This document shows, in pieces, positions 33,309-57,078 of a stretch of 64,000 nucleotides of DNA (positions are counted from its first letter, which is position 1; each line of letters starts with the position of its first letter). The translations under genes were made by a program, and so were the position numbers. The DNA lies in contig CAVSGO010000006.1 in NCBI GenBank assembly GCA_963727525.1, positions 46,906 through 110,905 on the forward strand. The letters are read 5' to 3'. Source of the DNA: an uncultured bacterium (GTDB lineage Bacteria > Krumholzibacteriota > Krumholzibacteriia > LZORAL124-64-63). Under the pieces are notes generated by a model. That model was not told the DNA's origin. It did no database searches and saw nothing but the letters and a program-made list of their open reading frames with translations.

Positions 33309-33343
33309 GGCACCATATGCGTCGCGGAAGGAAAGGCGTCCGC

Positions 33344-33889: not shown

Positions 33890-33911
33890 GATCGGATCCT
33901 GTCGTTGCGAA

Positions 33912-34703
33912 CTATAGCGCGTCGCGCGTGACCGTGGCGTTCTCCACGATGACGTCGTACGCGTAACCCGCGCCGAAATCCTTGTTCGTGGCGACGGTGC
34001 CCTTGATCAGGACCACGTCGCCGACCTTGGCGTCGCCGTCGGTGGTGACGGTGAGGTCGCCGTCGGCGCCGTTGCTGCTGCCGTCCTGGATGTGCAGCCA
34101 GTTCTTGCCCATCACGTTGCCGGTGCGCTTGACCACCTGGCCGCGCACGAGCACCTGCTTGCCGGCGAGCTTGGCGGCATCGGCGTGGATCTCCGCCACG
34201 GTCACGCCACCGGCAGCCTTGGCCACGCTGCCGGCCGCCACGGTGACGTCGGCCTGATTCAGACCGGAGTGCGGATTGCTGCCACCGCTCATCGCGCCGC
34301 CGCCCATGGAGGCCGGCATGTTCGATGCGCCGCCCTTCTGGATGGCGTTGACGAAGTAGATCTCCGGGAAAGTGCGGTCGAGCGTCTTGCTGGCGAAGTC
34401 CTTCATCACCATGCCGGCGGGCATGGTCACCTCATCGCCCACGGCCACCTCGGTGGTGGGGCCGGCCGCCCAGACGTCGCCATCGGCGGTCTTCACGTGG
34501 ACGTAGGTATAGCCGCCGGAATCCATCGTCTCGGTGACCTCGCCGCTGATGCTGGCCGGGGTCGCGGACGGAGGCGCGGCCTGCTGGCCCTGCGCGGGGG
34601 TGTTCGCGCTGGCCTGCTGCTGGGCGCTGGTGTCGCTCTTGCCCCCGCAGCCGGCGAGCAGGGCGATCAAGGCGATGGCGGCAAGTAACGTACGGACCAT
34701 CAT
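33912..34703 (-). CDS. Lipoprotein of unknown function (263 aa)
   Basis: Start trimmed to ATG 34703 (GGGAGG RBS 6 nt upstream). MMVRTLLAAIALIALLAGC lipobox, Q/A/P-rich linker, then a Gly-rich soluble domain. Confidence 0.7.
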   Translation of the reverse strand: MMVRTLLAAIALIALLAGCGGKSDTSAQQQASANTPAQGQQAAPPSATPASISGEVTETMDSGGYTYVHVKTADGDVWAAGPTTEVAVGDEVTMPAGMVMKDFASKTLDRTFPEIYFVNAIQKGGASNMPASMGGGAMSGGSNPHSGLNQADVTVAAGSVAKAAGGVTVAEIHADAAKLAGKQVLVRGQVVKRTGNVMGKNWLHIQDGSSNGADGDLTVTTDGDAKVGDVVLIKGTVATNKDFGAGYAYDVIVENATVTRDAL

Positions 34704-34771
34704 CGTGAGCCTCCCAAGGGTTTCGAGATTGCCTAGCATGGCCACAAGATAGACCGTACGGGTGGTATTTC

Positions 34772-34954
34772 AACCCACCTAATTCATGCTGTCGCGTAGC
34801 GAGGCGAGTGGAACGGTCTCTGTGAGCGGGATCTCGCAGGGTTTGTGAGGGAGCCGTACCCGCTGGGGTACGGTGACCGCAGCAAACCCGAGAAAGCCCG
34901 CTCACAGAGACCCGTGACGCCGCCGCAGTAGCGATAGCATGAATTAGGTGGGTT
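34772..34954. repeat. ~183-bp imperfect inverted repeat (long hairpin) in the divergent intergenic region between the lipoprotein gene and the CDF transporter gene
   Basis: Arms pair symmetrically about nt 34863/34864: AACCCACCTAATTCATGCT (34772-34790) with AGCATGAATTAGGTGGGTT (34936-34954); GGTCTCTGTGAGCGGG (34815-34830) with CCCGCTCACAGAGACC (34898-34913); apical hairpin CCGTACCC-gctg-GGGTACGG (34854-34873). Intervening segments pair only partly. No other copy in the window. Confidence 0.7.
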
Positions 34955-40300: not shown

Positions 40301-41413
40301 CTAATCTGGGTGGGGCGGACGGCGCTTCCGATCGTCCGGATCGAGATCCCCATCGTCCGTGAAGATACGCAGGTCCCGCGGGGCGACATACATGACGTCG
40401 CCGGCGACCACGTTCAGCTCCTGGAATCGCTCCGGCGCGACCGCGGCCTCGAACTGCTCGCCGGTCGGTGTCCGCAATGCGAGCCTCACCGTAGGCCCCG
40501 CCGCGTGGACCGCCATGACCTCGGCCCGCAGGCTCGGGACCATTGGGGGGTGCCTTTCCAGGGTCAGTTCGTGCGGCCTGATGAAGACACGCACCGCGCT
40601 CGCGGATCGCGCCTGGTGAGCCGGCGCGTCCAGCACGACACTCGCGAACATCACCTTGCCGTCGGCCACGCGACCCCGGAACACGTTGACGTCTCCAAGG
40701 AAGTTCATCACGAATTCCGTCGCCGGTTCGTGGAATACAGCGTCGGGCTTCCCGACCTGTTCGATGTGGCCCTCGTTCATCACGACGATGCGATCGGCCA
40801 CCTCGAGGGCTTCGTCCTGGTCGTGGGTGACGAAGACGCTGGTGACGTGGATATGTTCGTGCAACTGTCGCAACCAGATGCGAAGCTGCTTGCGCACGCG
40901 TGCGTCGAGCGCGCCGAAGGGTTCGTCGAGCAGCAGCACGCGCGGCTCCACGGCGAGCGCCCGCGCCAGGGCCACCCGCTGGCGCTGGCCTCCGGAGAGC
41001 TGAGCCGGGAAACGATCGGCCATGGGTTCGAGCTGAACGAGTTGTAACAACTCCTGCACGCGCGCCGCGATCGCGCGGCGCGAGGGCCGTTCGCCTCGTG
41101 GCCTCACTCGCAGGCCGAAGGCCACGTTCTCGAACACCGTCAGGTGCCGGAACAGCGCGTAATGCTGGAACACGAATCCCACGCGGCGCTCCTGCACGCG
41201 CCGCCCGGCGACGTCCTGATCGTGGAAACGGACGGGACCGCTGCCGGCATCGGGAAGCTCGAGGCCGGCGATGATACGCAGCAACGTGGTCTTGCCGGAG
41301 CCGGAGGGTCCGAGCAACGCGGTGAGCTCGCCGGCCGGCAGGGTGACGCTCACGTTGCGCAACGCCGTGAACGTGCCATAGGTCTTGCTGACGTGTTCGA
41401 TGGTGATGCCCAT
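40301..41413 (-). CDS. cysA: Sulfate/thiosulfate ABC transporter ATP-binding protein
   Basis: Start trimmed to ATG 41413 ([13 protein letters not shown]). Walker [10 protein letters not shown], signature [15 protein letters not shown], Walker B LLLDEP, C-terminal TOBE-like domain. Confidence 0.85.
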
Positions 41414-41414
41414 G

Positions 41415-42296
41415 TCATGCGACCTCCGTCGCGCCATCGTGGCTGTGGACCTGCGCGGCTTGCGGTTCACCGGTCTGCTGTTCCATCAGCGCCCTGGCGG
41501 CCAGCGTCGCCAGAGCCAGGAGCGCGAGGAGCGAAGCTGCCGCGAAGGCGGCGACGAAGTTGTACTCGTTGTAGAGGATTTCTACCTGAAGCGGCAGCGT
41601 AATGGTCTTGCCGCGAATGTGGCCGGAGACCACCGAGACCGCTCCGAACTCGCCCATGGCGCGCGCATTGCAGAGAATCACGCCATAGAGCAGGGCCCAC
41701 TTCACGTTGGGAATGGTCACCCGCCACAGCGTTTGCCAGCCCGAGGCTCCGAGCGTGAGCGCGGCTTCCTCGTCGTCGGTGCCCTGGGCCGCCATGAGCG
41801 GGATCAGCTCGCGTGCCACGTATGGCAGCGTCACGAAGACCGTCGCCATCACGATGCCGGGCACCGCAAAGATCACCTGCAGATCGTGCGCGGCCAGCCA
41901 CGGGCCCAACCAGCCATGAAGGCCGTACACCAGCACGTAGACGAGGCCCGAGATCACGGGCGAGATGGCTAGCGGCAGGTCGATCAAGGTCGTCAGCACG
42001 GTCTTGCCGCGGAACTCGAACTTGGCGACGGCCCACGCCGCCGCGAGGCCGAACACCAGGTTCACGGGCACGGCGATCGCCGCGACGAACAGCGTGAGTC
42101 GGATCGCGGCGCGTACGGCCGGGTCGCCGAAGCTCGCCACGTAGGCGCGCGCACCGCGACGCAGGGCCTCGGCGAAGACGGCGGCCAGGGGCGCCAGCAG
42201 GAAGACCGCGAGAATCACCAGCGTTGCCGCCAGGGCCAGCCGGCGCGCCCAGCGAGGATCGGCGATGGCGACGCGCGGCGTCGATGCAACGGGCAT
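41415..42296 (-). CDS. cysW: Sulfate ABC transporter permease
   Basis: Start trimmed to ATG 42296 (MPVASTPRV...). Permease EAA-like loop [16 protein letters not shown]. The upstream 230 codons of ORF 41415..42998 are antisense/read-through junk. Confidence 0.8.
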
Positions 42297-42298
42297 GA

Positions 42299-43132
42299 TC
42301 AGACTCTCCCGCGCCGGGCCCAGCGCTGTAGCAGATTGATCGTCAGCAACAGGCCGAACGAGACGGCAAGCAGCGCCACCGCGATCGCCGTGGCGCCCGC
42401 CTCGTCGTACTGCTCGAGCTTGGTCACGATCAGGAGCGGCGCGATCTCGGTACGCATGGGAAGATTGCCGCTGATGAAGACCACGGAACCGTACTCGCCG
42501 AGCGCCCGTGCCAGGGCCAGACCGAAGCCGGTGAGCACGGCCGGCGCAAGGCCGGGCAGTACGACATATCGCAGGGTCTGTCGACGCCGCGCGCCGAGGC
42601 TGGCGGCGGCCTCCTCCATTTCGGGATCGAGGTCCGCCACGGCAGGCTGGAGTGTCCGAACGACGAAAGGTAGACCAACGAAGGCGAGCGCGATCACCAC
42701 GCCCAGGGGCGAGAACGCTGCTCGGATGCCCACATGTGCCAGCAAGCCGCCGAGCCAGCCCGTGGGAGCATAGATGGTTGTGAGTGCGATCCCGGACACT
42801 GCCGTGGGCAGGGCGAAGGGCAGGTCGATGAGGGCGTCGAGGATCCGTTGGCCGGGAAAGCGATATCGCACGAGCGCCCACGCCACCACCGTACCGCACA
42901 GCGTGTCGACGAATGCGGCGATCAGGGCGCTGCCGATGCTGAGCCGGCACGCCGCGACGACCCGCGGCGCGGTCACGATGTCCCAGAATCCGGTCCAACC
43001 AAACGTCGCGGAGCGCAGAACCAGCGCCGCCAGCGGCACGAGGGCCACGACCGAGAGCGTGAACAGCGTGACACCGAGCGTCAGCTCGAAGCCGGGAAGC
43101 ACCGTATGCTTGCGCGCCAGGAGGGCCATCAT
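42299..43132 (-). CDS. cysT: Sulfate ABC transporter permease
   Basis: MMALLARKHTVLPGFELTLGVTLFTLSVVALVP... ; EAA-like loop SLGARRRQTLRYVVLP; six-TM profile. Confidence 0.8.
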   Translation of the reverse strand: MMALLARKHTVLPGFELTLGVTLFTLSVVALVPLAALVLRSATFGWTGFWDIVTAPRVVAACRLSIGSALIAAFVDTLCGTVVAWALVRYRFPGQRILDALIDLPFALPTAVSGIALTTIYAPTGWLGGLLAHVGIRAAFSPLGVVIALAFVGLPFVVRTLQPAVADLDPEMEEAAASLGARRRQTLRYVVLPGLAPAVLTGFGLALARALGEYGSVVFISGNLPMRTEIAPLLIVTKLEQYDEAGATAIAVALLAVSFGLLLTINLLQRWARRGRV

Positions 43133-43139
43133 GGTTGCC

Positions 43140-44226
43140 TCATCGCCGCGCGGCCATCATCGCATCGAAGACGCCGCCGTCGACGAAATGCGTCTGCTGC
43201 GCGACTGTCCAGCCACCGAAGACATCATCGACGCTCATGCGCTGCAACGCCGGGAAGCGCGCGAGATCGGCCGGGTCGGCATTCGTGGGATCGACCGGCC
43301 GGTAGTAATGCTTCGCTGCGAGCCGCTGAGCGACGGGCGAGTACAGCCACTGCAGGTAGGCCGTGGCCACCGCACGCGTGCCGTGCTTGTCGGCCCACGA
43401 ATCCACGAGGGCCACGGGCGGTTCCGCGAGGATGCTCACCGATGGCACGACGATGTCGACGCGGTCGGGGCCGAACTCGTTGACCGCGAGAAATGCCTCG
43501 TTCTCCCAGGTGAGGAGCACGTCGCCGATGCCGCGCGCCACGAATGTGCCGGTGGCGCCTCGAGCCCCCGAATCGAGCACCGGCACGTGGGCGTAGAGCG
43601 CGGCGACGAAGGCGCGCGCGCTGTCCTCGGCCGCGGCAACGGCGCCGGCGGCGGCCGTGTCGTGCAGCCGTGCGAGGTCGCCGAGCTGCCGCTGCAGCGC
43701 CGCCGCCCACGCGGCGAGGTAGATCCAGCGCGCACCCCCCGAGGTCTTGGGATTGGGGGTGATCACCGTCACGCCCGGCGCGAGCAGGTCTGCGCCAATC
43801 GTGGATGCCGCGGGGATTCCCCTTGCGCACCAGGAACACCACGGTCGAGGTGTACGGCGTGCTGCCGTTCGGTAGCCGCTGTCGCCAGTTCCCGGGCAAG
43901 GTGCCGGCATGTGAGGCGATCGCGTCGATATCGTGGGCCAGCGCCAGCGTCACGACGTCGGCTTCCAGCCCCTCGATCACGGCCCGCGCCTGGGCGCCGG
44001 AGCCGCCATGCGACATCGCGATCGTCACTGTCTGCCCGGTCTCCAGCCGCCAGTGCTCCGCGAACGTCGAGTTGACGTCCCTGTAGAATTCGCGGGTCGG
44101 ATCGTAGGAGACATTGAGCAGGGTGAGCGGCCTTTCCGATGCCGCGGCGGGCTCGCTCCGACGGCACCCGATCGGGAATGTCATGATGGCCAGCAGCGCC
44201 AGGATCATGAGGGATGCGCGGGACAT
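43140..44226 (-). pseudogene. sbp: Periplasmic sulfate/thiosulfate-binding protein (Sbp/CysP), split by a +1 frameshift near nt 43785-43803
   Basis: N-terminal part (ATG 44226, AGGAGG RBS, lipoprotein-like signal [21 protein letters not shown] ... [19 protein letters not shown]) lies in the ORF 43225..44364 frame. The C-terminal part ([29 protein letters not shown] ... LTWENEA ... FGGW) lies in the ORF 43140..43910 frame. Removing one base from tggCgcagacctg restores ...HDWADLLAPG.... Confidence 0.75.
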
Positions 44227-44278: not shown

Positions 44279-44382
44279 ATCGCATGATGATATACAACTT
44301 GTTGCCGCACAATAAATAGCTTATTTAGTATGCCGTATACCGTGAAATGTGGTAGCTTTGCCATGAAATATCATGGTATGAT

Positions 44383-44400
44383 CCGTGATATATCACGGAG
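44383..44400. promoter_or_regulatory. Perfect 18-bp palindrome TCCGTGATATATCACGGA (with nearby CCATGA-aata-TCATGG, 44361-44376) in the divergent sbp / sigma-54-activator intergenic region; candidate activator (UAS) or autoregulatory site
   Basis: Seen directly. Lies about 105 bp upstream of the putative sigma-54 -24 element of sbp and abuts the RBS of the activator gene. Confidence 0.45.
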
Positions 44401-44410
44401 GAGGCCTGCC

Positions 44411-45976
44411 ATGGCGACCGATTCCTGGCTGCTCGACGTCTGGCGAGAAGCCTGCCAGCATCTTGACCTCGGCGAGCTGATCGCGCGGCTCGCCCCGCTC
44501 GTCAAATGCCGCTGGCCCGTGAGCGCGGTCGCCGTGGCGCGCCAGTCGCCCGACGCCAAGGTGATGGAACTTGTCGGCCCGCTTGGCGACGGCGACGTCG
44601 CGGCGGACCAGCGCCGCGAGCTGACGTCTGCCGATTCCCGCTTGCTCGGCGCCTGGCTTGCACAGGGGCAGACGGAGATCATCGCGAACGACGGCCGGGT
44701 GCCGTCCGGTGTGGCCACGCTTCTGCCCGCTGCGTACACCCGGGCCGGTACCGTCATCGCGCCGCTCACCTCGTCCGATGAGGCGCGCGGGCTACTCGTG
44801 GTCGTACCCGCGGATTCCGAGGCGCCGCACGGGGTGCTTCCGGCTGTCGAGCAGCTGCGGGCTCCGCTCGCCGCAGCCCTGGCGAACGACCGTCGGTTGC
44901 GTGAGCTGGTGGATCTGCGCCGGGCTGCCGAAGCCGATCGGCGATCCTTGCTCACGCGTCTCGGCCGCGACGAGTTGCTCGAGACCATCGTCGGCGCCGA
45001 CGGCGGCCTGCGTGGTGTGATGGCACGCGTCGCCATGGTCGCGGCGTCGGACATACCGGTGCTGATCCTGGGCGAGACCGGTGCCGGCAAGGAGGTCGTG
45101 GCGCGCGCCGTGCACGCGCGGTCGCGACGCGCGCACGGGCCGTTCACGCGCGTGAACTGCGGTGCCATCCCGCCAGAGCTGGTGGATTCCGAACTCTTTG
45201 GCCACGAGAAGGGGAGCTTCACCGGCGCCATGTCCCGCCGCCGCGGCTGGTTCGAGCGCTCGGACCAGGGCACCCTGTTGCTCGACGAGGTCGGCGAACT
45301 GCCGAAAGCGGCGCAGGTGCGGTTGCTACGAGTGATCCAGGACGGCATGCTCCAGCGTGTGGGGGGGGAGTCGATGCTCCGGGTCGACGTGCGGATCATC
45401 GCAGCCACCCATGCCGATCTTGCCGCCATGGTGCAGCGCGGCGAGTTTCGCGAGGACCTGTGGTACCGGCTCGCTGTTTTTCCGCTGGTGTTGCCTCCCC
45501 TGCGTGAACGGACCGAGGATATTCCCGACCTCGTTGCCATGCTCGCGCGACGCGCCTCGCGACGATTCGGCCTCAGGCCGCAGCGACCGACGGCTGCCGA
45601 TCTCGCCCTGCTTGCGGCCTATCCGTGGCCGGGAAACGTCCGGGAACTGGGTTCGGTAATCGATCGTGCCGCCATCCTGGGCGATGGCAAGTGTCTGGAT
45701 ATCGCGAAGGCGCTCGGCAGCGGCGGTCCCGGCATGCACGCGGGGGCATGGGCGTCGTCGCCACGTGCGACGAGCGCGACGCCCGAGGCGCTCGCGTCGC
45801 TGGACGCGGCGATGGCTGCGCACATTCGCGCCGCCCTCATTGCCTGCGATGGTCGTATCGAGGGGGCGCAGGGCGCGGCCGTTCTCCTGTGCATCAACCC
45901 GCACACGCTGCGCGCGCGCATGCGAAAGCTCGGTCTCGAGTGGGCCCGATATCGGGTCCATCGATCCACAGGCTGA
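44411..45976 (+). CDS. Sigma-54-dependent transcriptional activator (bacterial enhancer-binding protein): N-terminal GAF-like sensor, AAA+ sigma-54 interaction domain, C-terminal HTH
   Basis: ATG 44411 with GGAGGAGG RBS. Walker A GETGAGKE, sigma-54 contact motif GSFTGA, RVDVRIIAATH, PWPGNVREL, C-terminal HTH (AQGAAVLLCINPHTLRARMRKLGL). Confidence 0.85.
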   Translation: MATDSWLLDVWREACQHLDLGELIARLAPLVKCRWPVSAVAVARQSPDAKVMELVGPLGDGDVAADQRRELTSADSRLLGAWLAQGQTEIIANDGRVPSGVATLLPAAYTRAGTVIAPLTSSDEARGLLVVVPADSEAPHGVLPAVEQLRAPLAAALANDRRLRELVDLRRAAEADRRSLLTRLGRDELLETIVGADGGLRGVMARVAMVAASDIPVLILGETGAGKEVVARAVHARSRRAHGPFTRVNCGAIPPELVDSELFGHEKGSFTGAMSRRRGWFERSDQGTLLLDEVGELPKAAQVRLLRVIQDGMLQRVGGESMLRVDVRIIAATHADLAAMVQRGEFREDLWYRLAVFPLVLPPLRERTEDIPDLVAMLARRASRRFGLRPQRPTAADLALLAAYPWPGNVRELGSVIDRAAILGDGKCLDIAKALGSGGPGMHAGAWASSPRATSATPEALASLDAAMAAHIRAALIACDGRIEGAQGAAVLLCINPHTLRARMRKLGLEWARYRVHRSTG

Positions 45977-46044
45977 ACTCCCATGTTTTTTGTAAGTGAT
46001 GTATGTCTTTATATTTACACGAATCGGCACATGCGATTTTATTT

Positions 46045-46058
46045 GTTAAATTTTTAAC
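46045..46058. promoter_or_regulatory. AT-rich palindrome GTTAAA-tt-TTTAAC within the AT-rich promoter island (45980-46124) upstream of the cytochrome-rnf gene string
   Basis: Perfect 6-bp arms with a 2-nt spacer. The island also contains TTTACA-N17-TTTTAT (46012-46040) as a possible sigma-70-like promoter. Confidence 0.25.
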
Positions 46059-46124
46059 CTATGACTAGGTTACATCACGAGCACGTTCCCTGAACACAGG
46101 CCGCACACGATGCGAGGTGGTCTC

Positions 46125-46598
46125 ATGACTTCTGACACGCCCTCCAATGGCGACCACTGGGAATGCATGGTCTGGGAGAAGCACCGGTACAATGACCGTA
46201 CTGTCATCAAATCCGGTTCCTATCTCCGCGCATCCTGTCCCTACTGCGCGGAATGTCTGATTGCCGAGGGCATGATCCGCCTCGCGTCCGTCTCGCGAGA
46301 CGGGCGCAAGGGCTGGGTGGAACTGAGTCCGTACCTCAACGTCTTCGAGCGGCGCAGCGACATCCACCTTTCCGAGACCGCCGACTTTTCGGACCTGGTC
46401 TGTCCCCACTGCCACCGCTCGCTCAGGGTCCCGGAGCGCAAGTGCGGACGCGGCGATGCGAGCGTCGCCGTGGTGATGGTGGGCATCTCCACGATCAACG
46501 TGCCCTTCTACTTCTGCATGCAGACGGGCTGCACATGGCACCTCATCGATCCAGAGGACGAGCACCGGATCATCCTGGACGACAGCCTGGAATGGTGA
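46125..46598 (+). CDS. Cys-rich hypothetical protein (paired CxxC zinc-ribbon-like motifs, including CPHCH) (157 aa)
   Basis: ATG 46125 with GAGGTGG RBS. CPYCAEC ... CPHCHRSL ... CMQTGC. No signal peptide. First gene after the AT-rich island. Confidence 0.6.
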   Translation: MTSDTPSNGDHWECMVWEKHRYNDRTVIKSGSYLRASCPYCAECLIAEGMIRLASVSRDGRKGWVELSPYLNVFERRSDIHLSETADFSDLVCPHCHRSLRVPERKCGRGDASVAVVMVGISTINVPFYFCMQTGCTWHLIDPEDEHRIILDDSLEW

Positions 46599-46602
46599 CG
46601 CG

Positions 46603-47256
46603 ATGCCCTTCGCTGGACGCGATGATCATGGTTCGCCGGTTCGCGGTCACGCTCGCAGCAATGCGGTGCTGATCGTCGTTGCGGTCGTGGCCGCCGCCGT
46701 CGCCGCCGGCGGATACTTGCGGGGGGCGCCGCCGCCGACGACTGATCGCATCTACCTGCGCAGCATCGGCGGCGCGGTTGTCTTCGGACATGCGGAGCAC
46801 CAGGCTCGGGTCGCAAGCTGCCTGCCCTGCCACCATGAACTGATCCTGGGCGATCCGATCGCCTGCGCCACGTGCCACGATGCGGATGTCACGTTCGATC
46901 TGGCGTCGCATGACGAACTCGTGCAGATCGATGGCCACACCTGCGACGGCTGTCACGCGAGCGCAGATGCCACGGGTGCGCGCAACTGCCGCGCCTGCCA
47001 TGCCTCTGAGGTCGAAGGCGCAACGAGCGTGCATGCCTGCAGCGATTGCCACGATGATGCGACATACGGGCCGGCGACGTTGCCGCACGCGAGTCTCGTG
47101 ACCATCGAAGGACACAGTTGCGATGGGTGCCACACACCTCGCGCCCTTGCAGAAGCGTACCACGCGACCTGCAACGGCTGTCACCTGCGAGCCGCCCCGC
47201 AGCGATTCGCTGCAGCCGATGGTGGCGCGACGTGCGCAGCGTGCCACCTGAAGTGA
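46603..47256 (+). CDS. Membrane-anchored octahaem c-type cytochrome (cytochrome c3-like) immediately upstream of rnfC
   Basis: N-terminal TM/signal-anchor AVLIVVAVVAAAVAAGG. Eight CxxCH motifs (CLPCH, CATCH, CDGCH, CRACH, CSDCH, CDGCH, CNGCH, CAACH) in 217 aa. Confidence 0.85.
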   Translation: MPFAGRDDHGSPVRGHARSNAVLIVVAVVAAAVAAGGYLRGAPPPTTDRIYLRSIGGAVVFGHAEHQARVASCLPCHHELILGDPIACATCHDADVTFDLASHDELVQIDGHTCDGCHASADATGARNCRACHASEVEGATSVHACSDCHDDATYGPATLPHASLVTIEGHSCDGCHTPRALAEAYHATCNGCHLRAAPQRFAAADGGATCAACHLK

Positions 47257-47272
47257 AACGCGGAGGTCGATC

Positions 47273-48577
47273 GTGAGCTTGCTCAACCTGTTCAAGACAC
47301 CCGCGGCTCGCGTCCCCCGCGTGGCGCTCGGGTCCACGGCGATCGTCGACCTGCCCGATCCCGACCACGTGGTGATCCCCCTCGAGTATCCCGGTCAGAT
47401 TCGCTTTCGACCCGCGGTCCAGGCCGGAGACTCCGTGGCGCGCGGGCAGGTGATCGGCCGTTCCGAACTGGGCAACTGCGTGCACGCCTCGATCAGCGGG
47501 CTGATCAAGGAGATCCGGACAATCTGGTCGGCTAGTGGCTACCACGTTCCGGCGGTCGTCATCACCCGCGGCGACGCACCCGCGCTCACACCCACCGAGT
47601 GCCTCGGACAGTGCGGGCTCGATCTGGCCTCGGCGACACGCATCGCATTGCTCAAAGCGGGCGGTGTGATTTCCCCGTGGACCACGCCGGGCCAGGACCA
47701 CCGAGAAGCGGACATCGGCGAGTTCCCGGACATCCAGCACATCGTCGTGAAGGGGCTGAACGAGGAGCCCACGATCGTAAATTTCGAGCTGCTCATGGTG
47801 GAGGGAGCCGGCAGGCTGAAGGACGCGTTGCAACGGCTGTGCGATTTCGTGCCCCGCGCCACGATATGGTTGACGGTGGCGCGCCGCCTCGAGCCGTGGG
47901 CGCGCGAGACCTTCGAGGACCTCGTACGCGTGGTGGGCCTCGCCGAGGAGTATCGCCATCGCATCGAGCGGATGGTGGTGCCGCGCGTGACGGGCGTGGC
48001 CATTGCGAATACCGAGGCGTTCCGGTCGCGCGGTGTCGCCGTGCTCTCCGTCGAACACCTGCTGACCGCGGCCGATGCGCTTGCCGGCAAGCCATTCACG
48101 CACAAGACGGCGACGATAGCCGGAGGCCTTCTGCGCGAGCCGGTGACCGTGCGCACACCGGTCGGAACGACGATCGGGACCTTGCTCGCGAGCCAGGGCA
48201 TGAGCGCCGCCGACTACGGTCGTCTGATCGTCGGCGGCCCGATGCGCGGCATGACGCAGTATACCGACGAGACGCCGTTGAGCAAGTTCCAGCACGGCGT
48301 ATTGGTGATGGCAGCGTCCGAGCTGCCGGCGGAGCTGAACCGTACCTGTGTGAACTGCGGCCGCTGCACGCGCGCCTGTCCCGTGCACCTGCAGGTGCAC
48401 CTCATCGGGCGTTGCGTGGAGTACAACCTGCTTGCCGAAGTGCCTTCGCGCCACCCAGAGGCCTGTCACGAGTGCGGGCTCTGCGCCTTCGTCTGTCCGG
48501 CTCATCGGCCCCTGGTGCAGATGATGAAGATCGCCAAGCGTGCGGGCGTGACCGAGACGAGCGAGGCGGTGGCATGA
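47273..48577 (+). CDS. rnfC: Rnf electron-transport complex subunit C
   Basis: GTG 47273 with GGAGG RBS. RnfC_N-like N-terminus, IVGGPMRG, C-terminal 2x[4Fe-4S] (CVNCGRCTRACP, CHECGLCAFVCP). Not evaluated: no canonical GGxGFP FMN/NADH motif was seen by eye. Confidence 0.8.
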   Translation: MSLLNLFKTPAARVPRVALGSTAIVDLPDPDHVVIPLEYPGQIRFRPAVQAGDSVARGQVIGRSELGNCVHASISGLIKEIRTIWSASGYHVPAVVITRGDAPALTPTECLGQCGLDLASATRIALLKAGGVISPWTTPGQDHREADIGEFPDIQHIVVKGLNEEPTIVNFELLMVEGAGRLKDALQRLCDFVPRATIWLTVARRLEPWARETFEDLVRVVGLAEEYRHRIERMVVPRVTGVAIANTEAFRSRGVAVLSVEHLLTAADALAGKPFTHKTATIAGGLLREPVTVRTPVGTTIGTLLASQGMSAADYGRLIVGGPMRGMTQYTDETPLSKFQHGVLVMAASELPAELNRTCVNCGRCTRACPVHLQVHLIGRCVEYNLLAEVPSRHPEACHECGLCAFVCPAHRPLVQMMKIAKRAGVTETSEAVA

Positions 48578-49608
48578 TCCCGACGATCATCGACACGCGG
48601 CCGGCGACCGACCAGGCGCCCAGGAACGATCGCGACGCTCAGCACGACCACAAGCTGAGCGTAGCCGAGGGGCCGCACTGGCACGACGGCAGTTCGCTCA
48701 CGCGGACACAGATTCTCTGGCTTATGGCGCTGCTTCCCGCGGGCGTGGCGAGCGGCGTCATGCTCGGCGCACCGGCGTTGCGGGTGATGGCGCTGGCGGT
48801 CGCGGCCGCGATCGCCTTCGATGCCCTCGCCAACCGCGTGATGTCCCTGCCGGATGCCACCTCGAACGGCAGCAGCATCACTCTCGGCCTGCTGCTCGCC
48901 TTTCTCCTGCCGGTCGACGCGCCGTGGTGGTTGGTGGTCGTGGGCTGTTTCCTGACCATCGTGATCGGCAAGAAGCTCTTCGGTGGCTGGGGCGGCTATC
49001 CCGTGCATCCGGTGGCGCTGAGCTACGCGATGCTCGTCGTGTCGTGGCCAGCGCGGATGGACGTCACGGCGTCGCTCGTGCACGCGACCTGGCGCGCCGC
49101 ACCGGTGGAACCTCTACGGCTCGTCAAGACCCTCGGCGCGGCCGCCGCCGCGCAATACGACCTCCACGACCTCCTGCTCGGCGTGCAGACCGCTGGCGTG
49201 GGCGACGCGATGGTGCTGTGGCTTCTCGCGGGCGGTGTCTTCCTATTCCTCGTCCGGCAGGTGCCCTGGCAGATTCCGATCGGTGTCGTCGCCGGCGTGG
49301 TGCTCTGCGCCTGGCTGCTCGGCATGGCCGACCCCGGGCGCACGGCCACGCCGGCCTTCCAGCTCCTGGCGGGCGGTACGGTGTTCATGGCGTTCTTTCT
49401 GGCGCCGGAGCACACGACATCGCCGGTCAACCCGTGGCCGATGTTCCTCTACGGGTGGTTGGGCGGCGTGTTGCTCGTGCTGATCCGCGCGTTCTCGAGT
49501 CACATCGACGGCACGGTATTCGCCGTGCTGCTGATGAACGTCGCCTGTCCGCTGCTCGACCGCCTGGGGCCCCGGATCGTCGGCCTGGAGGTGCCACGCG
49601 ATGCGTGA
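48574..49608 (+). CDS. rnfD: Rnf complex subunit D (NqrB-like integral membrane subunit)
   Basis: ATG overlaps the rnfC stop (ATGA). Polytopic membrane profile with the conserved GGWGGYPVHPVAL-type segment and the FMN-attachment-region context (TSPVNPWP). Confidence 0.8.
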   Translation: MIPTIIDTRPATDQAPRNDRDAQHDHKLSVAEGPHWHDGSSLTRTQILWLMALLPAGVASGVMLGAPALRVMALAVAAAIAFDALANRVMSLPDATSNGSSITLGLLLAFLLPVDAPWWLVVVGCFLTIVIGKKLFGGWGGYPVHPVALSYAMLVVSWPARMDVTASLVHATWRAAPVEPLRLVKTLGAAAAAQYDLHDLLLGVQTAGVGDAMVLWLLAGGVFLFLVRQVPWQIPIGVVAGVVLCAWLLGMADPGRTATPAFQLLAGGTVFMAFFLAPEHTTSPVNPWPMFLYGWLGGVLLVLIRAFSSHIDGTVFAVLLMNVACPLLDRLGPRIVGLEVPRDA

Positions 49609-50206
49609 AATCGGTCGCCTGGTGCTGGTGCTCGGGCTCATCGGCGTGGTGAGCGCGTCGTCGCTGGCATACGTGCGCACGACCCTCGCTCCCCGGATCG
49701 AGCGGCAGAACGATTTCTACGTGCGCGGGCCGGCGCTCGAACGGCTGTTCCAGCAGCCGGCACGCACTCTCCTGGGCAACAAGGTGACGCTGGATGCGGC
49801 CGGCACCCGCTACCTGATCTTCTTTCGGCGAGTGGACGGCGACGTCACGGGTCTCGCCGTGGAAGCGCCTGGCCACGGCGGCTACGCCGGCGACGTGGTG
49901 ATGATGGTCGGACTCGATCTTGTCACCGAACGGATGCTCGGCGTGGAGATCGTCTCGCACGGCGAGACCCCGGGCGTGGGTGCCCGGATCGAGAGACCGA
50001 CATTCCGCAAGCAGTGGCGAGGCTTGCCGATGGACGACACGCTGAATCTGCGCACTGCGGGCGGCAACATCGACGCGATCAGCGGTGCCACCTTCTCGTC
50101 GCGTGCCATGATCGACGGCACCAACCAGGTCGATGGCCCTGATGCGGGATCACAGGGCCGACATCCTGGCGCGCATAGCCGGGAACTAGACGGAGAGCGG
50201 TCATGA
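49601..50206 (+). CDS. rnfG: Rnf complex subunit G (FMN-binding); last ~20 codons possibly frameshifted
   Basis: N-terminal TM anchor ([19 protein letters not shown]), FMN-binding-domain motif [14 protein letters not shown]. From about nt 50130 the +1 frame reads ...[18 protein letters not shown] (protein-like, RnfG-like C-terminus), whereas the called frame reads [23 protein letters not shown]. Confidence 0.7.
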
Positions 50207-50815
50207 CGTTCAGGCAGGCACTCACTCACGGGTTCTGGCGAGACCTGCCGCCTTTCCGGCTGGTGCTTGGCCTCTGCCCGGCTCTGGCCGTCACCTCGGC
50301 CGCGCCCAACGGGCTGGGCATGGGGTTGGCGGTGACCTTCGTGCTGATCTTCTCCAACATGTTCATCTCGCTGCTGCGCCGGGTGATCCCCGAGCGAGGT
50401 ACGGATCGCCAGCTACATCGTGGTGATCGCCAGCCTCGTGGTGCTCGTGGAACTGGGCATGAAGGCGTTCTTCTTCTCGCTCTCCCAGCAGTTGGGGATC
50501 TACATCCCGCTCATCGTCGTGAACTGCATCCTGCTGGGGCGCGCCGAGGCGTTCGCCTCGCGCAATCCTGTGCTGCTGTCCGTGGCCGACGGGGTGAGCG
50601 TGGGGCTGGGCTACACGGTCTCGCTCACGTTGATGGCGTCGGTGCGCGAGGTCCTGGGCGCCGGCACGTGGTTCGGCCATACAGTGTTCGGACATGGTTT
50701 CGAGCCCTTCGGTTTCATGGTCAGGGCGCCGGGGGCGTTCCTCTGCCTGGGCCTGCTCCTCGGACTGATGAATGCCTGGAGCCGCAAGCGCGGCGAGTTC
50801 TTCGTGCAGACGTGA
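50203..50815 (+). pseudogene. rnfE: Rnf complex subunit E, interrupted by a +1 frameshift at about nt 50392-50404
   Basis: ATG 50203 (GGAGAG RBS): [64 protein letters not shown], then junk in-frame. The conserved continuation (E)[43 protein letters not shown]... is in the next frame (ORF 50420..50815). Removing one G from gagcgaGgtacgg joins them. Confidence 0.8.
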
Positions 50816-50829
50816 CGGGAGACCGTGCC

Positions 50830-51405
50830 ATGAACCTGATTCTGCTGACCGTGAGTGCGATCTTCGTACACAACATCCTGCTGGCGCAATACCTGGGCAA
50901 CTGCCCGTTCTGCGGCGTATCGAAGAGGATCGAAACCGCGACCGGCATGGCGGTGGCCGTGGTATTCGTGACCACTCTGGCGTCGATCTTCACCTGGGGC
51001 ACGTATCACCAGATTCTCGTGCCATTGCACCTGGAGTACCTGCAAACGCTGGTCTTCATCCTGGTGATCGCGGCCCTCGTGCAGTTCGTGGAGATCTTCC
51101 TCAAGAAGAAGAGCCGTTCCCTCTACAACGCGCTCGGGATCTACCTGCCACTGATCACCACGAACTGCGCCGTGCTGGGGATCGCGTTGCTCAATATCAA
51201 GAACAACTTCGGCTTCGTGCACATGGTGGTGTATTCCGCCGCCAGCTCGGCGGGATTCGGCCTTGCCATCGTGCTGTTCGCCGGGGTGCGCGAGCGCCTC
51301 TTCCTGTCGCCGGTGCCGCGGTCCATGCAGGGGACGGCGATCGCCCTCGTCACGGCCGGCATCATGTCGCTCGCGTTCCTGGGGTTCGCGGGCATGGTCG
51401 AGTAG
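50830..51405 (+). CDS. rnfA: Rnf complex subunit A
   Basis: ATG 50830. [27 protein letters not shown]...[19 protein letters not shown] (RnfA/RnfE family signature). Confidence 0.85.
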
Positions 51406-51420
51406 CCACGGAGACGCACC

Positions 51421-53511
51421 ATGTGGATCCCCGCTGTCGTCCTCGGAGGTATCGCCGCGATCGCGGCGGTGGTGCTGGGCATTGCGGCGCGCGTCTTCCA
51501 CGTTCAGGAAGATCCGCGGATCAAGGCCGTCAATGACCTGCTCGCCGGCGCCAACTGCGGGGGCTGCGGCTACGCGGGCTGCGTCGCCTGTGCGGAGGCG
51601 ATCGTCCGCGGCGAGGTGGAGCCCAACGCATGCGTGGTCGGTCAGGCCGATGTGGCGCGCGCCGTCGCCTCGTTTCTGGGCATGGAACTGGCCGACACGG
51701 AGCCGCAGATCGCGTGCCCCGACTGCCAGGGAGGGTTGCGCGCCTCGCGCAAGTACGCCTACGCCGGCTTTGACGACTGCCGCGCTGCTATGCTCTATTT
51801 CCACGGCCCCGTGTCATGCCAGCACGGATGCCTCGGGCTGGGCACCTGCATCCGCGCCTGCAAGTTCGGGGCGATCACGATGGGGCCCGCCGGGTTGCCC
51901 CTCTTCGATCCTACGCGCTGCGTGGCCTGCGGCGCCTGCGCTCGCGCTTGCCCCAAGGGCATCATCTCGATCATTTCCGAGACGACCAAGATCCTGCACT
52001 GGAATCGCTACACCGAATGCCTGGCCCCGTGCCGGCAGAAGTGTCCGGCGCAGATCAACATCCCCAAGTACATCGAGCACCTGAAGCGCGGCGAGTTCGC
52101 CGAGGCGTTGCTGACGATCAAGGAGAGCAACCCGCTACCGCTCTCCACGGGCCGGGTATGCCCCGAGCCGTGTGCCCTGGCCTGCCGGCGACATATCGGC
52201 GACGAACCGGTAGCGATCAACTATCTCAAGCGCTTCGCGGCCGACTGGGAAATGAGCTCGGGGCGCCGCCTGCACATCCCTGTGCTTCCGGATACCGGCC
52301 GGAAGGTCGCGGTGATCGGAGGCGGGCCAGCCGGACTGTCCGCGGCCTACTTCCTGCGCCGCCTCGGCCACGCCGTCACCATCTATGATCAGATGCCGGC
52401 GCTCGGCGGCATGCTGCGCTACGGCATTCCGGAGTACCGTCTTCCCAAGCGTGTTCTCGACTGGGAGATCGAGGGCATCCTGGCACTCGGCATCCAGGCC
52501 GCGACCGGTGTCGCTCTGGGCAAGGACTTCACCATCGATTTCCTGCGCGCCAATGGTCACGACGCGATCTTCCTCGCCGTGGGTGCATGGCGCGACAATG
52601 GCCTTGGCCTCGAGGACGACGGCGTCTCTGGTATCGTGAGCGGCATCGAGTTGCTGCGGCGCATGCAGACGTCCGCGCCGATCCCCTTACGTGGACACGT
52701 GATCGTGATCGGCGGCGGCAACACCGCCATCGATGCCGCGCGCACCGCCCTGCGAGCCGGCGCGAGTCGGGTGAGCATCGTGTATCGCCGTTCGCGCGAC
52801 GAGATGCCGGCGAATCCGGCCGAGATCGTGGCCGCTGACGAGGAGGGCGTGCGATACCGCTTCCTCAGCGCGCCCAACCGCATCGTATCCGACGCCGGCC
52901 ACGTCACCGGGCTCGAGATTCTGCGCATGGAGCTGGGCGAACCCGATCCCAGCGGTCGGCGAAGGCCCGTGGCGATCGCGGGATCGGAAGAGACGATCCC
53001 GTGCGACCTGATCATCGAGGCCGTGGGCCAGATGCCCGACATCGATTTCCTTGCGGTGCCGGGCATGCCGTCGTTGCCGACAACGCGCTGGAACACGATC
53101 GACGCCAGCGAGGACACGCTACAGACCGATGTGCCCTACATCTTCACCGGTGGTGATTGCTTCACGGGACCCTCGCTCATGGTCAACGCGATCGGTGCTG
53201 GTCGGTATGCGGCACGATCGATCCACTATTACGTGACCGAGGGCAGGATTCCGCCAATCGAGCACCGACAGACCGAACTCATCAGCGACTCGCTCTACGA
53301 GTCCATCGCGGGTGTGGCACCCCGCCCTCGGGTGCACGAGCCCGTCGTGACGCTGCAGGACCGCCTCGGCACTTTCAATGAGGTCGAGGGCACGATCGAC
53401 GAAGAGGATGCCCTCTACGAGGCCGCGCGTTGCCTGCATTGCGGCACCTACTGCTATGACCACGATCTGGAGCAGGAACGTCTGCGGCAGGAGACCGAGC
53501 AGCCGGCGTGA
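51421..53511 (+). CDS. rnfB: RnfB (N-terminal membrane anchor + Fe-S/ferredoxin domains) fused to a GltD/NfnB-like NAD(P)H-dependent FAD oxidoreductase (696 aa)
   Basis: GGAGA RBS. MWIPAVVLGGIAAIAAVVLGIAA, NCGGCGYAGC (RnfB cluster), two 4Fe-4S ferredoxin motifs (CIRACKFGAI / CVACGACARACP); then KVAVIGGGPAGLSAAYFL (FAD GxGxxG) ... VIVIGGGNTAIDAARTA (NAD(P) GxGxxA) ... TGGDC as in glutamate-synthase small-subunit-like flavoproteins. Confidence 0.8.
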   Translation: MWIPAVVLGGIAAIAAVVLGIAARVFHVQEDPRIKAVNDLLAGANCGGCGYAGCVACAEAIVRGEVEPNACVVGQADVARAVASFLGMELADTEPQIACPDCQGGLRASRKYAYAGFDDCRAAMLYFHGPVSCQHGCLGLGTCIRACKFGAITMGPAGLPLFDPTRCVACGACARACPKGIISIISETTKILHWNRYTECLAPCRQKCPAQINIPKYIEHLKRGEFAEALLTIKESNPLPLSTGRVCPEPCALACRRHIGDEPVAINYLKRFAADWEMSSGRRLHIPVLPDTGRKVAVIGGGPAGLSAAYFLRRLGHAVTIYDQMPALGGMLRYGIPEYRLPKRVLDWEIEGILALGIQAATGVALGKDFTIDFLRANGHDAIFLAVGAWRDNGLGLEDDGVSGIVSGIELLRRMQTSAPIPLRGHVIVIGGGNTAIDAARTALRAGASRVSIVYRRSRDEMPANPAEIVAADEEGVRYRFLSAPNRIVSDAGHVTGLEILRMELGEPDPSGRRRPVAIAGSEETIPCDLIIEAVGQMPDIDFLAVPGMPSLPTTRWNTIDASEDTLQTDVPYIFTGGDCFTGPSLMVNAIGAGRYAARSIHYYVTEGRIPPIEHRQTELISDSLYESIAGVAPRPRVHEPVVTLQDRLGTFNEVEGTIDEEDALYEAARCLHCGTYCYDHDLEQERLRQETEQPA

Positions 53512-53541
53512 TCCGGCCGCCATGCAGAAAGGTACGGCAAG

Positions 53542-53949
53542 GTGTATCTACGGACCGCGCGAAATCGCCTGCAGTTCGTGCTCTGGCTCGTCGCGGTGCA
53601 CTCTGCCGCCGTTGCCGTGGGACTCATGGCGCATCCCGTAGCGCTGCTGGAACGCCTCGGCTTCGCCGCCGTGGGCGAGCCGTTCTTCCCGACCCAGGGC
53701 GGCGTCTTCCATCTGGTCATGGCGGTAGGCTACGCGATGGCTGCCTGGTCGCCGGATCGCAACCGCTGCCTGGCCGTGTTCTCGATCGTGGTCAAGGTTC
53801 TGGCCACGCTCTTTCTGCTCGTCTATTGGTTCGTGATCTCTCGTCTACCGGCGGTGCTGCTTTCCGGCCTGGTCGACGGCGCCATGGCGGTAATGATCGC
53901 GCTCGCGTACGCGGCATGGCGACGCGAGCAAGCACGCGAGGTGTCGTGA
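53542..53949 (+). CDS. Small hydrophobic membrane protein of unknown function (135 aa)
   Basis: GTG 53542. Four predicted TM helices (FVLWLVAVHSAAVAVGLMA..., VFHLVMAVGYAMAAW..., VFSIVVKVLATLFLLVYWFVI..., VDGAMAVMIALAYAAW). Stop overlaps the next start (GTGATGG). Confidence 0.5.
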   Translation: MYLRTARNRLQFVLWLVAVHSAAVAVGLMAHPVALLERLGFAAVGEPFFPTQGGVFHLVMAVGYAMAAWSPDRNRCLAVFSIVVKVLATLFLLVYWFVISRLPAVLLSGLVDGAMAVMIALAYAAWRREQAREVS

Positions 53950-55619
53950 TGGACACGAAGCTGCCCGGAATCGTCGTGACCGGCGCCTCCGGCTTCATCG
54001 GTCGGCACTTCCTGGCCAGTGCGGCCGGACGCTACCGGCTGTTCTGTCTGGCGCGCCGCTCGCGCGAGGAGTCGCAGATTCCCGCCTACGAAAACCTGCA
54101 TTGGTCGCAGGTTGACGTTGCGCGCTGGGACGACCTACGCGAGGTCGTGCATTGCGTGAAGAGCCATGGAGGCGCGTCTGCCGTGCTTCATCTCGCCGGC
54201 TACTACGACTTCCACAACATGGAGCACCCCGAATACGAACGCACGAACGTGAAGGGGACCCGCAACGTTCTCAAACTGGCGCGTCAGCTCGGTGTCGGTC
54301 GCTTCATCTTCGCCAGCTCCCTGGCCGCGTGCCGGTTTCCGCCGGCGGGCCTGGCGATCACCGAGGATTCGCCGGCCGACGCCGGATTCGCCTATGCCCG
54401 GAGCAAGCGCGACGCGGAGGAACTCATCTGCGCGCATACCCAATGGATCCCAGCGTCCATCGTGCGCCTCGCTGCGGTCTATAGCGACTGGTGCGAGTAT
54501 CCACCGCTCTATGTCTTCCTGAAGACGTGGCTATCGGACGGCTGGAACGCCTGCATTCTCGGGGGGCGCGGCGAATCGGCGGTGCCGTACATTCACGTCC
54601 AGGATCTGGTGAAGCTCTTTCATGTGATCCTCGAGCGCAGCGCTACGCTGCCGCGACTGGCCGTGTACAACGCCAGCCCGAATTCAGTGGCCAGCCATCG
54701 GGATCTGTTCCAGATGGCGACGCGTGCATACTACGGCACGGACATCCAGCCGCGATGCGTGCCGCGCGTACTGGCGGTACCGGGCGTGTTCCTGCGCTGG
54801 TGGCTCGGCAAGGCCCGAGGGGCGGCGCCGTTCGAGGCGCCCTGGATGATGCGGTATGTGGACGCGCAGCTCCGGGTCGATGCCAACCGCACCCATGCGG
54901 CGCTCGATTGGCGCCCGGCGCCGCGCATGGACGTCGTACGACGGCTACTGGTGATGATCGAGAATATGAAGACGCACTCCGAAATATGGCATCAGCGCAA
55001 TGAGGCGGCTCTACGGCGCGTGGCATACCGTCCCAATCTCGTCATCGCCCGGATCCTCGACGACCTGCGCGAGGAGTTGATCGCCCGGATCGCCGAACGG
55101 GTGAATTCACCGGATCTGGCCTCGCAATTCGCCGGATATCACGACATGGAGCGCGAGACGCTCCGCTGGTACCTCGCGTTGCTCTACCAGGTGCTCGTGG
55201 CGTCCGTGCGCACGCGCGACCGGCAGCTCATCCGGCACTACGCCCAGGTCATCGCCACGAGACGCCAGCAGGAGGGTTTCTCGTCCGACGAAGTGCGCGA
55301 CTTCCTGATCCTGGTGGGCAAGATCGTGACTGAGACGTTGCGCACGCATGCCGAGCTTGTGGGGCACGAGCAGCCCATTCACGACAATGTCGGTCTGGCG
55401 TTCCAGCTCGCGGTCGACGGCATCGAGGACGTCTACGAAGCTCACGAGGCGCTCAATCCGGAATTGATTGCGCGGGGGCAGGGCTTCGCGGAACTGGGCT
55501 CGAACCGCGACCTCGAGCATATGGTTCACCAGCTCCGCGATCTCTGTGGCGATGTGTTCCCGACGCCCGGTGTCCACGCGAACACGGCCACGACGGATCG
55601 TCCCGTCATCGGACCATGA
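53949..55619 (+). CDS. NAD-dependent epimerase/dehydratase (extended SDR) family protein with a ~250-aa C-terminal helical extension (556 aa)
   Basis: ATG 53949 (MDTKLPGIVVTGASGFIGRHF = GxxGxxG Rossmann). YARSKRDAEE (YxxxK). The upstream part of ORF 53508..55619 is read-through. Confidence 0.8.
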   Translation: MDTKLPGIVVTGASGFIGRHFLASAAGRYRLFCLARRSREESQIPAYENLHWSQVDVARWDDLREVVHCVKSHGGASAVLHLAGYYDFHNMEHPEYERTNVKGTRNVLKLARQLGVGRFIFASSLAACRFPPAGLAITEDSPADAGFAYARSKRDAEELICAHTQWIPASIVRLAAVYSDWCEYPPLYVFLKTWLSDGWNACILGGRGESAVPYIHVQDLVKLFHVILERSATLPRLAVYNASPNSVASHRDLFQMATRAYYGTDIQPRCVPRVLAVPGVFLRWWLGKARGAAPFEAPWMMRYVDAQLRVDANRTHAALDWRPAPRMDVVRRLLVMIENMKTHSEIWHQRNEAALRRVAYRPNLVIARILDDLREELIARIAERVNSPDLASQFAGYHDMERETLRWYLALLYQVLVASVRTRDRQLIRHYAQVIATRRQQEGFSSDEVRDFLILVGKIVTETLRTHAELVGHEQPIHDNVGLAFQLAVDGIEDVYEAHEALNPELIARGQGFAELGSNRDLEHMVHQLRDLCGDVFPTPGVHANTATTDRPVIGP

Positions 55620-57078
55620 CCATCTTGCGCGTGAGCACGTGGCCCGCCTGCTCGAGGCGGTACACGTAGACCCCGGCCGGCATCGCGGCGCCTTGGTCGT
55701 CGGTGCCGGCCCACATCGTCACGTGGTGGCCGCCGTCGCGTTCGGCGTCGACGAGGGTCCGTATCCGTCGGCCGCGCTGGTCGAAGATGGCAAGTGTGAC
55801 GTGATCTCCGCCGCGCCGCACGTCGTACCCGATCGTGGTCTGGGGATTGAAGGGGTTGGGAATGTTCTGCTCGAGGGCGATGGCGTTGGGCACGCTGTCG
55901 ATGTTGACCGTGGTGCCCGTGATGCGGTAGACCGTATCGCCGCCGACGTCGACCACGTACAGTTCGCCGAGCCCATCCTGGCCGATCGACGCGAGCCCGC
56001 CGAAGCCGCCCGGCGGCGTGATCTGGTCGGTCCAGTCCGTGACCGGTCCGAATCCGCTCGCTGCCGACCACGCGCCACTCCAGATCTGACCGCTGCAGTA
56101 ATCGGCGAAAAAATACTGGCCGGCAAGCGCCGGTAAGGCGTCGCCGCGATAGACGTAGCCGCCTGAGATGGAGCATCGAAACGGGGTGCCGCCGTGCGAG
56201 TACTCGTGGACCGGCAACACCAGGGTGCCGTCGTTGCAATCACTCGGCGGATCGTAGCAACTCGTGCCTTCCATCAGGTGCCAACCGTAGTTCTCACCAC
56301 CGCTCGAGCTGGCGGGTTGGACGTCGATTTCCTCCAGCTCACCCTGGCCCACGTCGGCGATGTAGAGATCTCCGGTCTGTCGATCGAAGGAGAAGCACCA
56401 GGGGTTGCGCAGGCCGTAGGCCCAGATCTCGTCACGCCCGGGCTGGCCCACCAGGGGATTCGAGGGCGGATTGGTGTAGCCGGGTGCCATGGCCACGTTG
56501 ATGCGCAGGATCTTGCCCAGCAACAGGTCGACATTCTGCGCCCTGTTCTGCGGGTCGCCGGCTGAGCCACCGTCGCCCAGGCCGATGTAGAGCATGCCGT
56601 CCGGCCCGAACTGCAGGCACCCGCCGTTGTGGTTGCTGTACGGCTGTGTCACCGAGATCAGGTGCTCGGCGCTCGTGGGGTCGGCGACGTCGGGATCGGC
56701 GCTGACATGGTAGCGTACGATCTGCGTGTCGCCGTTGACGTCGGTGTAGTCGACGTAGAAGCGACCCGAGATGTCATAGTCGGGCGCGAAGGCGAGCCCC
56801 AGGAGTCCACGTTCGCTCCCCGTGCCGACCAGATCGGAGATGTCGAGGAAGACATCGAGTCGGTTGCCGCCCTGGTCGTAGACCTCGATACGTCCACCCT
56901 GCCGCACGACGAAGAGGCGAGGATCGCCATCCGGCGCGACGAGCCGCACGGGCTGAGCGATGTTCGTGATCACCGGTTCAACCGCAAGGACGGCCGCAGC
57001 CAACTGCGGGCGCATGGTTATCGCAACGAGGATGATAACGAGCGCGGCCAGTACGGGCCGCGAGAATGTGCGTAGCAT
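55606..57078 (-). CDS. Secreted PQQ-dependent sugar dehydrogenase (soluble glucose/sorbosone dehydrogenase family beta-propeller) with a C-terminal FlgD-Ig-like/T9SS-like sorting domain (490 aa)
   Basis: GGAGG RBS. Signal peptide. GLLGLAFAPDY, HNGGCLQFGPDGMLYIGLGDGG, YGLRNPWCFSFD, ENYGWHLMEG (sGDH-family motifs). C-terminus QNIPNPFNPQTTIGYDVRRGGDHVTLAIFDQRGRRIRTL...GVYVYRLEQAGHVLTRKMVMVR. Confidence 0.85.
   Translation of the reverse strand: MLRTFSRPVLAALVIILVAITMRPQLAAAVLAVEPVITNIAQPVRLVAPDGDPRLFVVRQGGRIEVYDQGGNRLDVFLDISDLVGTGSERGLLGLAFAPDYDISGRFYVDYTDVNGDTQIVRYHVSADPDVADPTSAEHLISVTQPYSNHNGGCLQFGPDGMLYIGLGDGGSAGDPQNRAQNVDLLLGKILRINVAMAPGYTNPPSNPLVGQPGRDEIWAYGLRNPWCFSFDRQTGDLYIADVGQGELEEIDVQPASSSGGENYGWHLMEGTSCYDPPSDCNDGTLVLPVHEYSHGGTPFRCSISGGYVYRGDALPALAGQYFFADYCSGQIWSGAWSAASGFGPVTDWTDQITPPGGFGGLASIGQDGLGELYVVDVGGDTVYRITGTTVNIDSVPNAIALEQNIPNPFNPQTTIGYDVRRGGDHVTLAIFDQRGRRIRTLVDAERDGGHHVTMWAGTDDQGAAMPAGVYVYRLEQAGHVLTRKMVMVR

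Follow-up and report, generated by a model that had tools for sequence, protein, structure and literature searches.

Probable consensus error behind an rnfE gene split between two reading frames in the Rnf operon of an uncultured bacterium

Sequence analysis of a 64,000-nucleotide stretch of DNA from an uncultured bacterium (hereafter the window) revealed that its rnfE gene, located within a complete Rnf operon, is distributed over two reading frames. Judged from sequence comparisons, the interruption is probably a consensus error that entered the assembly where strains of the population differ, and the rnfE of the organism would then be ordinary and functional. The preliminary description of this locus had offered two explanations, i.e. 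an assembly or sequencing indel, or a genuine pseudogene. That framing was right, and the evidence leans to the first of the two: an independent contig carries an intact rnfE, the inspected orthologues show no shift, the 3′ part of the gene is undamaged, and two more insertions were found in the window.

The Rnf operon and the identity of rnfE

The operon for the Rnf complex, a ferredoxin:NAD+ oxidoreductase, is encoded on the plus strand of the window, which has a G+C content of 67%, and its genes are arranged in the order rnfC-D-G-E-A-B. The rnfE gene is ordinary, and the operon is ordinary as well, though interestingly built. Coordinates of the operon genes, of the neighboring loci and of all distinguished sequence differences are summarized in Table 1.

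Table 1. Features distinguished in the window and its differences from independent contig L003 (ERR11594398_158359).
Feature	Position in the window	Strand	Remarks
sulfate-binding protein gene (sbp/cysP)	43140-44226	-	one-base frameshift inside TGGCGCAGAC (43797-43788)
sigma-54-dependent activator	44330-45976		upstream of rnfC
157-aa ORF	46125-46598		no family match; upstream of rnfC
multihaem c-type cytochrome	46603-47256		217 aa; weak matches to HmcA, TmcA and cytochrome c7; upstream of rnfC
rnfC	47273-48577	+	intact; identical in L003
rnfD	48574-49608	+	intact; one F/Y difference at 49493
rnfG	49601-50189	+	frameshifted by an extra A at 50133; restored product of 195 aa, stop TAG 50187-50189
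rnfE, 5′ part (codons 1-63)	50203-50391	+	frame of ATG 50203; invariant metal-ligand Cys25 in motif LGLCP
CCCC run with the most likely extra base	50388-50391	+	CCC in L003
rnfE, 3′ part (+1 frame)	50393-50815	+	SEVRIASY... to TGA 50813-50815; invariant Cys108 in motif VVNCI
rnfA	50830-51405	+	intact; same frame as the rnfE 5′ part, no stop between them
rnfB fused to GltD-like NAD(P)-binding flavoprotein domain	51421-53511	+	696 aa; intact
variable tract	49493-50515	+	1,023 bp; 7 of 8 differences (5 substitutions and both insertions)
difference in sigma-54 activator	45647		synonymous
difference in rnfD	49493		F/Y; window allele T
difference in rnfG	50133		extra A in the window (GTCGATGG vs GTCGTGG)
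difference in rnfE	50217		synonymous; window allele G
difference in rnfE	50346		synonymous; window allele G
difference in rnfE	50388-50391		extra C in the window (CCCC vs CCC)
difference in rnfE	50417		I/V; window allele A
difference in rnfE	50515		synonymous; window allele C

The RnfC and RnfD proteins scored under the curated TIGRFAM cut-offs (176.6 bits vs 245.95 and 183.1 bits vs 207.05, respectively); by context, they are clearly the right subunits. The Rnf lineage of the window appears, from its sequences, fairly divergent from that of model organisms. The predicted RnfB is composed of an N-terminal Fe-S module (residues ~1-260) and a GltD-like part of ~490 aa, and it reached 500.9 bits with model NF009410, just below the cut-off of 516. 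In relatives, from Krumholzibacteriia to Desulfobacterota, more than 35 loci retain this RnfB-flavoprotein fusion over its full length.

Removal of one base from the assembled rnfE yields a protein of 203 aa. The repaired RnfE exceeded the cut-offs of two RnfE models, NF009070 (RsxE/RnfE; 255 bits vs 184) and TIGR01948 (227.1 bits vs 213.4), and remained below those of the NqrD and RnfA models. Its residues 1-196 align to residues 1-195 of the solved chain 9eri_E (E = 8e-61), and it also aligns to 7zc6_E and 8ahx_E. These curated cut-offs and solved RnfE chains, together with the rnfC-D-G-E-A-B gene order, bear out the identification as rnfE made in the preliminary description.

In the solved Rnf complex, Cys26 and Cys109 of RnfE (Clostridium tetanomorphum numbering) and two cysteines of RnfA bind an intramembrane metal center (PMC9588780). 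The corresponding residues of the window RnfE, C25 and C108, are invariant in the alignment of RnfE orthologues. The frameshift falls between their codons, and the assembled sequence places the two cysteines in different frames.

Approximately 100 orthologues sharing 74-87% identity with the repaired protein were distinguished in Krumholzibacteriia, Zixibacteria, Calditrichota and related uncultured lineages. They are 203-204 aa long, almost all of them exactly 203 aa. A scan of relatives restricted to one genome per species gave 80 RnfE loci, all with at most 86% identity, and each of the 80 matched RnfE nearly full-length in a single segment. At the site of the window frameshift, the 33 loci that were inspected encode the motif I-P-[DENSG]-[KEQDR]-[VI]-R-I, and the frame stays open for 203 codons or more. 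The comparison with orthologous genes of related genomes, which had been proposed as a check, thus found the frame open through the site in 33 of 33 inspected relatives, with no frameshift in any of them.

An intact allele in the same population

An independent sequence of the same population was found by exact-product look-up with the RnfA, RnfB and RnfC proteins of the window. This Logan contig, ERR11594398_158359 (L003), is 11,226 bp long, 99.93% identical to positions 45200-56427 of the window, and carries an uninterrupted rnfE of 203 aa and an rnfG of 195 aa. The disruption of rnfE is therefore not reproduced in the only independent contig found for this gene. Two more contigs of run ERR11594398 are 100% identical to the window at positions 40973-42831 (1,859 bp) and 33186-34821 (1,636 bp). 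In all, eight differences were identified over 14,723 compared bases, i.e. a divergence of ~0.05%.

The differences are unevenly distributed. The 13.7 kb compared outside the variable tract contain one difference, and the density within the tract is ~100 times that of its flanks. Four of the six substitutions are synonymous, vs ~25% expected if they were random (P ~0.04), and the other two are F/Y and I/V exchanges. At both amino acid differences (RnfD F307 and RnfE I72) the window has the residue that is conserved in relatives. From this pattern the substitutions look like real polymorphism under purifying selection, and the variable tract resembles either a second haplotype of the population or a segment that has undergone recombination.

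Exact-pattern scans of JGI metagenome contigs revealed no further independent copies. Exact-product look-ups gave no match for the 201-aa RnfG, the 131-aa RnfE fragment or the 256-aa Sbp fragment, nor for RnfD, CysT and two other gene products of the window. The Logan contig proves only that the intact allele exists in ERR11594398, where the frameshifted allele may coexist with it.

Position of the additional base in rnfE

The assembled rnfE has its start codon at ATG 50203 and its stop at TGA 50813-50815, with a switch into the +1 frame close to codon 63. Translation from ATG 50203 gives MTFRQ...LLRRVIPE, after which the resemblance to RnfE is lost. The +1 frame opens past TGA 50384-50386 and continues to the terminal TGA. 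The phase of high third-position G+C flips at the frame change, and in a codon-usage Viterbi path the switch falls at 50404/50405, the outgoing frame being without a stop until 51403. These data confirm the earlier observation that two pieces of RnfE lie in different frames, as well as the sign of the shift: the window has one base too many, and the 3′ part is in the +1 frame.

The interval can be narrowed with the orthologue alignment. Two invariant residues bracket the change, as Pro63 is encoded in frame 0 and Val66 in frame +1; since the +1 frame has a stop at 50384-50386, the shift is confined to 50387-50399. The uninterrupted frame characteristic of RnfE is thus lacking in the window, with a change between 50387 and 50399, and is present in L003. 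Downstream of the change the gene is undamaged: over 141 codons the 3′ part has no internal stop, its third-position G+C is 0.96, and every invariant residue of the family is retained.

In the intact allele the site reads ATC CCG AGC GAG GTA, encoding I-P-S-E-V. The simplest account of the frameshift, judged from the two alleles, is most likely one C too many in the run at 50388-50391. The removal of a G (50398/50399), proposed in the preliminary description, did not hold, as L003 has one C fewer in this run, which lies 7-11 nt upstream of the G in question. The extra base is accordingly placed, in a likely reading of the alleles, just 5′ of the interval 50392-50420 to which the interruption had been assigned. 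Removal of the G would restore the frame as VIPERVRIASY, nearer to the orthologue consensus VIPDKVRIASY; the intact sister sequence is different, and this repair was rejected.

The G-removal product is relevant to another explanation, a compensated frameshift caught half-way. An ancestor with CCC GAG CGA GTA (P-E-R-V) would have acquired a G insertion, giving the window sequence, and a later C deletion would have produced the P-S-E-V of L003. The E-R pair of the ancestor is chemically like the D-K of the consensus, and the S-E of L003 is unusual; both points speak for this scheme. However, passing from the CCC GAC AAG GTG of relatives to the CCG AGC GAG GTA of L003 takes five substitutions, and the route through indels requires the same five plus two indels. 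The scheme also leaves the insertions in rnfG and sbp (see below) unexplained, and we consider it very improbable.

Phase variation and transcriptional slippage were also considered as causes of the split frame. A C-run of 3-4 bases would be too short for either process, and both were rejected.

Frameshifts in rnfG and sbp

Two other genes of the window are frameshifted. In rnfG as assembled, the stop is moved to TGA 50204-50206, and a nonsense tail of 24 residues takes the place of the C-terminal helix. This helix is conserved in relatives, and the family match of the assembled RnfG stops at residue 176 of 201. The third gene, sbp, is located upstream of cysT-cysW-cysA. A frame scan flagged a shift at ~43791-43794, with the 5′ and 3′ parts of the gene in different frames; following the removal of one base, the product matched the sulfate-binding family end to end (438.6 bits vs a cut-off of 288). 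The sbp frameshift is known from the window sequence alone.

There are thus three frameshifted genes among the ~55 of the window, each repaired by the removal of one base and all located within ~7 kb (~6.6 kb). The insertions in rnfG and rnfE are 255 bp apart. Of the three inserted bases, two do not duplicate an adjacent base, and a homopolymer is present at one site only, where it is short (3 to 4 bases). Non-duplicative inserted bases are atypical of replication slippage.

Ribosomal frameshifting at the rnfE site

The split gene could in principle be expressed by programmed or tolerated +1 ribosomal frameshifting, in which tRNA-Pro would move from CCC (50389-50391) to CCG (50390-50392) and translation would continue with AGC GAG GTA. 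CCC-N sites are prone to +1 slippage. The candidate slip site is ATCCCCGAG. The geometry works on paper, the product would be the protein of the intact allele, and the site is overlapped by GGTGATCC, which is complementary to the anti-Shine-Dalgarno sequence.

Several observations nevertheless make such recoding exceedingly improbable. No shift is needed in the allele of the same population or in the 33 inspected relatives (of 80 near-full-length loci). The A site holds neither a zero-frame stop nor a rare codon, and the next stop in the zero frame is at 51403. The frameshifts of rnfG and sbp are without such a site. Searches for stimulatory elements were negative: no Rfam element matched at the shift site, the predicted downstream structure was no better than that of shuffled sequence (z = -0.82), and the SD-like octamer GGTGATCC was not enriched (seven found vs 3.5 expected, a number reached by 7% of shuffles).

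Origin of the insertions

In the mechanism that we propose for a consensus error, the fourth C of 50388-50391 would have been added during consensus building, where two closely related haplotypes differ (49493-50515). The same tract would have gained a second spurious base, the A at 50133, disrupting the end of rnfG, and a third insertion of the same kind would have broken sbp, ~6.6 kb upstream. Such insertions may arise in consensus building or polishing, e.g. when long reads come from mixed strains, and each of them could represent both alleles of one SNV kept side by side: CCG/CCC, GTG/ATG and CGA/CGC. The predicted pairs would correspond to a synonymous change of Pro, a V/M exchange and a synonymous change of Arg, respectively.

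The location of the indels within the polymorphic tract would follow if the consensus mixes reads from two haplotypes that occur together. For long-read assemblies, indels in the consensus are a documented source of frameshifts in called genes (PMC9262707), and the source contig is long (378,181 bp). Arguments can also be raised against an artefact. If the source contig is a short-read de Bruijn assembly, all of its k-mers were present in the reads; some cells would then carry the frameshift allele, and a real null haplotype would become more probable. Furthermore, indels beside true polymorphisms could equally mark a real second haplotype.

The main alternative is a genuine, very recent and unfixed loss-of-function haplotype, i.e. 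a variant tract of ~1 kb, perhaps imported by recombination, with real insertions in rnfG and rnfE; we regard it as possible, though doubtful. The frameshift is present in the deposited sequence, and the indels sit exactly in the tract of polymorphism-like substitutions. The presence of two lesions in a single operon would be consistent with decay that followed an initial inactivating one. As the shift separates the two metal-ligand cysteines, whose counterparts Cys26 and Cys109 are invariant and essential to the RnfA/E center (PMC9588780), a real frameshift would create a null allele. According to PMC12718326, there are conditions under which Rnf is dispensable, and Bacteroides can gain an advantage from losing it.

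The remaining evidence argues against a real haplotype. The intact allele occurs in a nearly identical background. None of the signs of relaxed selection that would mark a pseudogene (extra stops, lost conserved residues, an excess of non-synonymous changes) was found: the window haplotype has no derived amino acid changes, and the 3′ part of rnfE is unblemished. A haplotype without relaxed constraint is a poor fit with two disruptive indels. Two frameshifts 255 bp apart, together with the one in sbp, greatly exceed the mutational expectation at 0.05% divergence. Moreover, all three indels are insertions, two of them non-duplicative.

It is rather unlikely that the frameshifts are real and that a natural Krumholzibacteriia-like population segregates a linked rnfG and rnfE null haplotype beside the intact allele, perhaps softened by +1 slippage. 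If so, the first 63 residues translated from ATG 50203 would be correct, followed by missense and, in the same frame, RnfA. The separation of C25 and C108 would leave those cells with an inactive Rnf complex; should tRNA-Pro slip at CCC-C, the exact wild-type RnfE sequence would occasionally be recreated. Real frameshifts would amount to an ordinary strain-level null allele of modest interest.

Consequences for annotation

The practical consequences concern the assembled sequence. The frame of the rnfE 5′ part has no stop before rnfA, which lies in the same frame, and this creates a chimeric ORF of 400 aa (50203-51405). Gene callers applied to this sequence would miss rnfE, fragment it or report the chimera as a spurious “RnfE-RnfA fusion”, and metabolic reconstruction would wrongly conclude that the organism has no functional Rnf complex. 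From the sbp frameshift, the binding protein for sulfate uptake would similarly seem to be missing. That three frameshifts occur within 7 kb calls for caution as to the local consensus quality of the contig.

Comparison with known systems

The window gene resembles the family of the Rnf membrane subunit E, RnfE/RsxE (PF02508; TIGR01948, NF009070; 9eri, 7zc6, 8ahx) in length, in passing the model thresholds, in colinearity with the solved chains, in both cysteines and in its rnfCDGEAB operon. It differs in being split between two frames at codon 63/64, and is otherwise indistinguishable from the orthologues of Krumholzibacteriia, Zixibacteria and Calditrichota, with which it shares 75-87% identity. 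The layout of the region, with an activator, an ORF and a cytochrome gene preceding the rnf genes, is reminiscent of the rnf operons that are linked to cytochromes in sulfate reducers.

Like genes with prfB-type programmed +1 frameshifting, the locus requires a +1 shift, and its slippery Pro codon could in principle re-pair in that frame. Unlike prfB, it has no zero-frame stop at the site, no conservation of the shift and no detected stimulator, and the same population harbors an intact allele.

There is also a likeness to the consensus indels of long-read or mixed-strain assemblies (PMC9262707): single-base indels in otherwise perfect conserved genes, several per window, absent from an independent assembly and carried by a long source contig (378 kb). 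The classic long-homopolymer error is different, since here two of the three sites are not homopolymers and the run at the third is short. A further distinction is that all three events are insertions.
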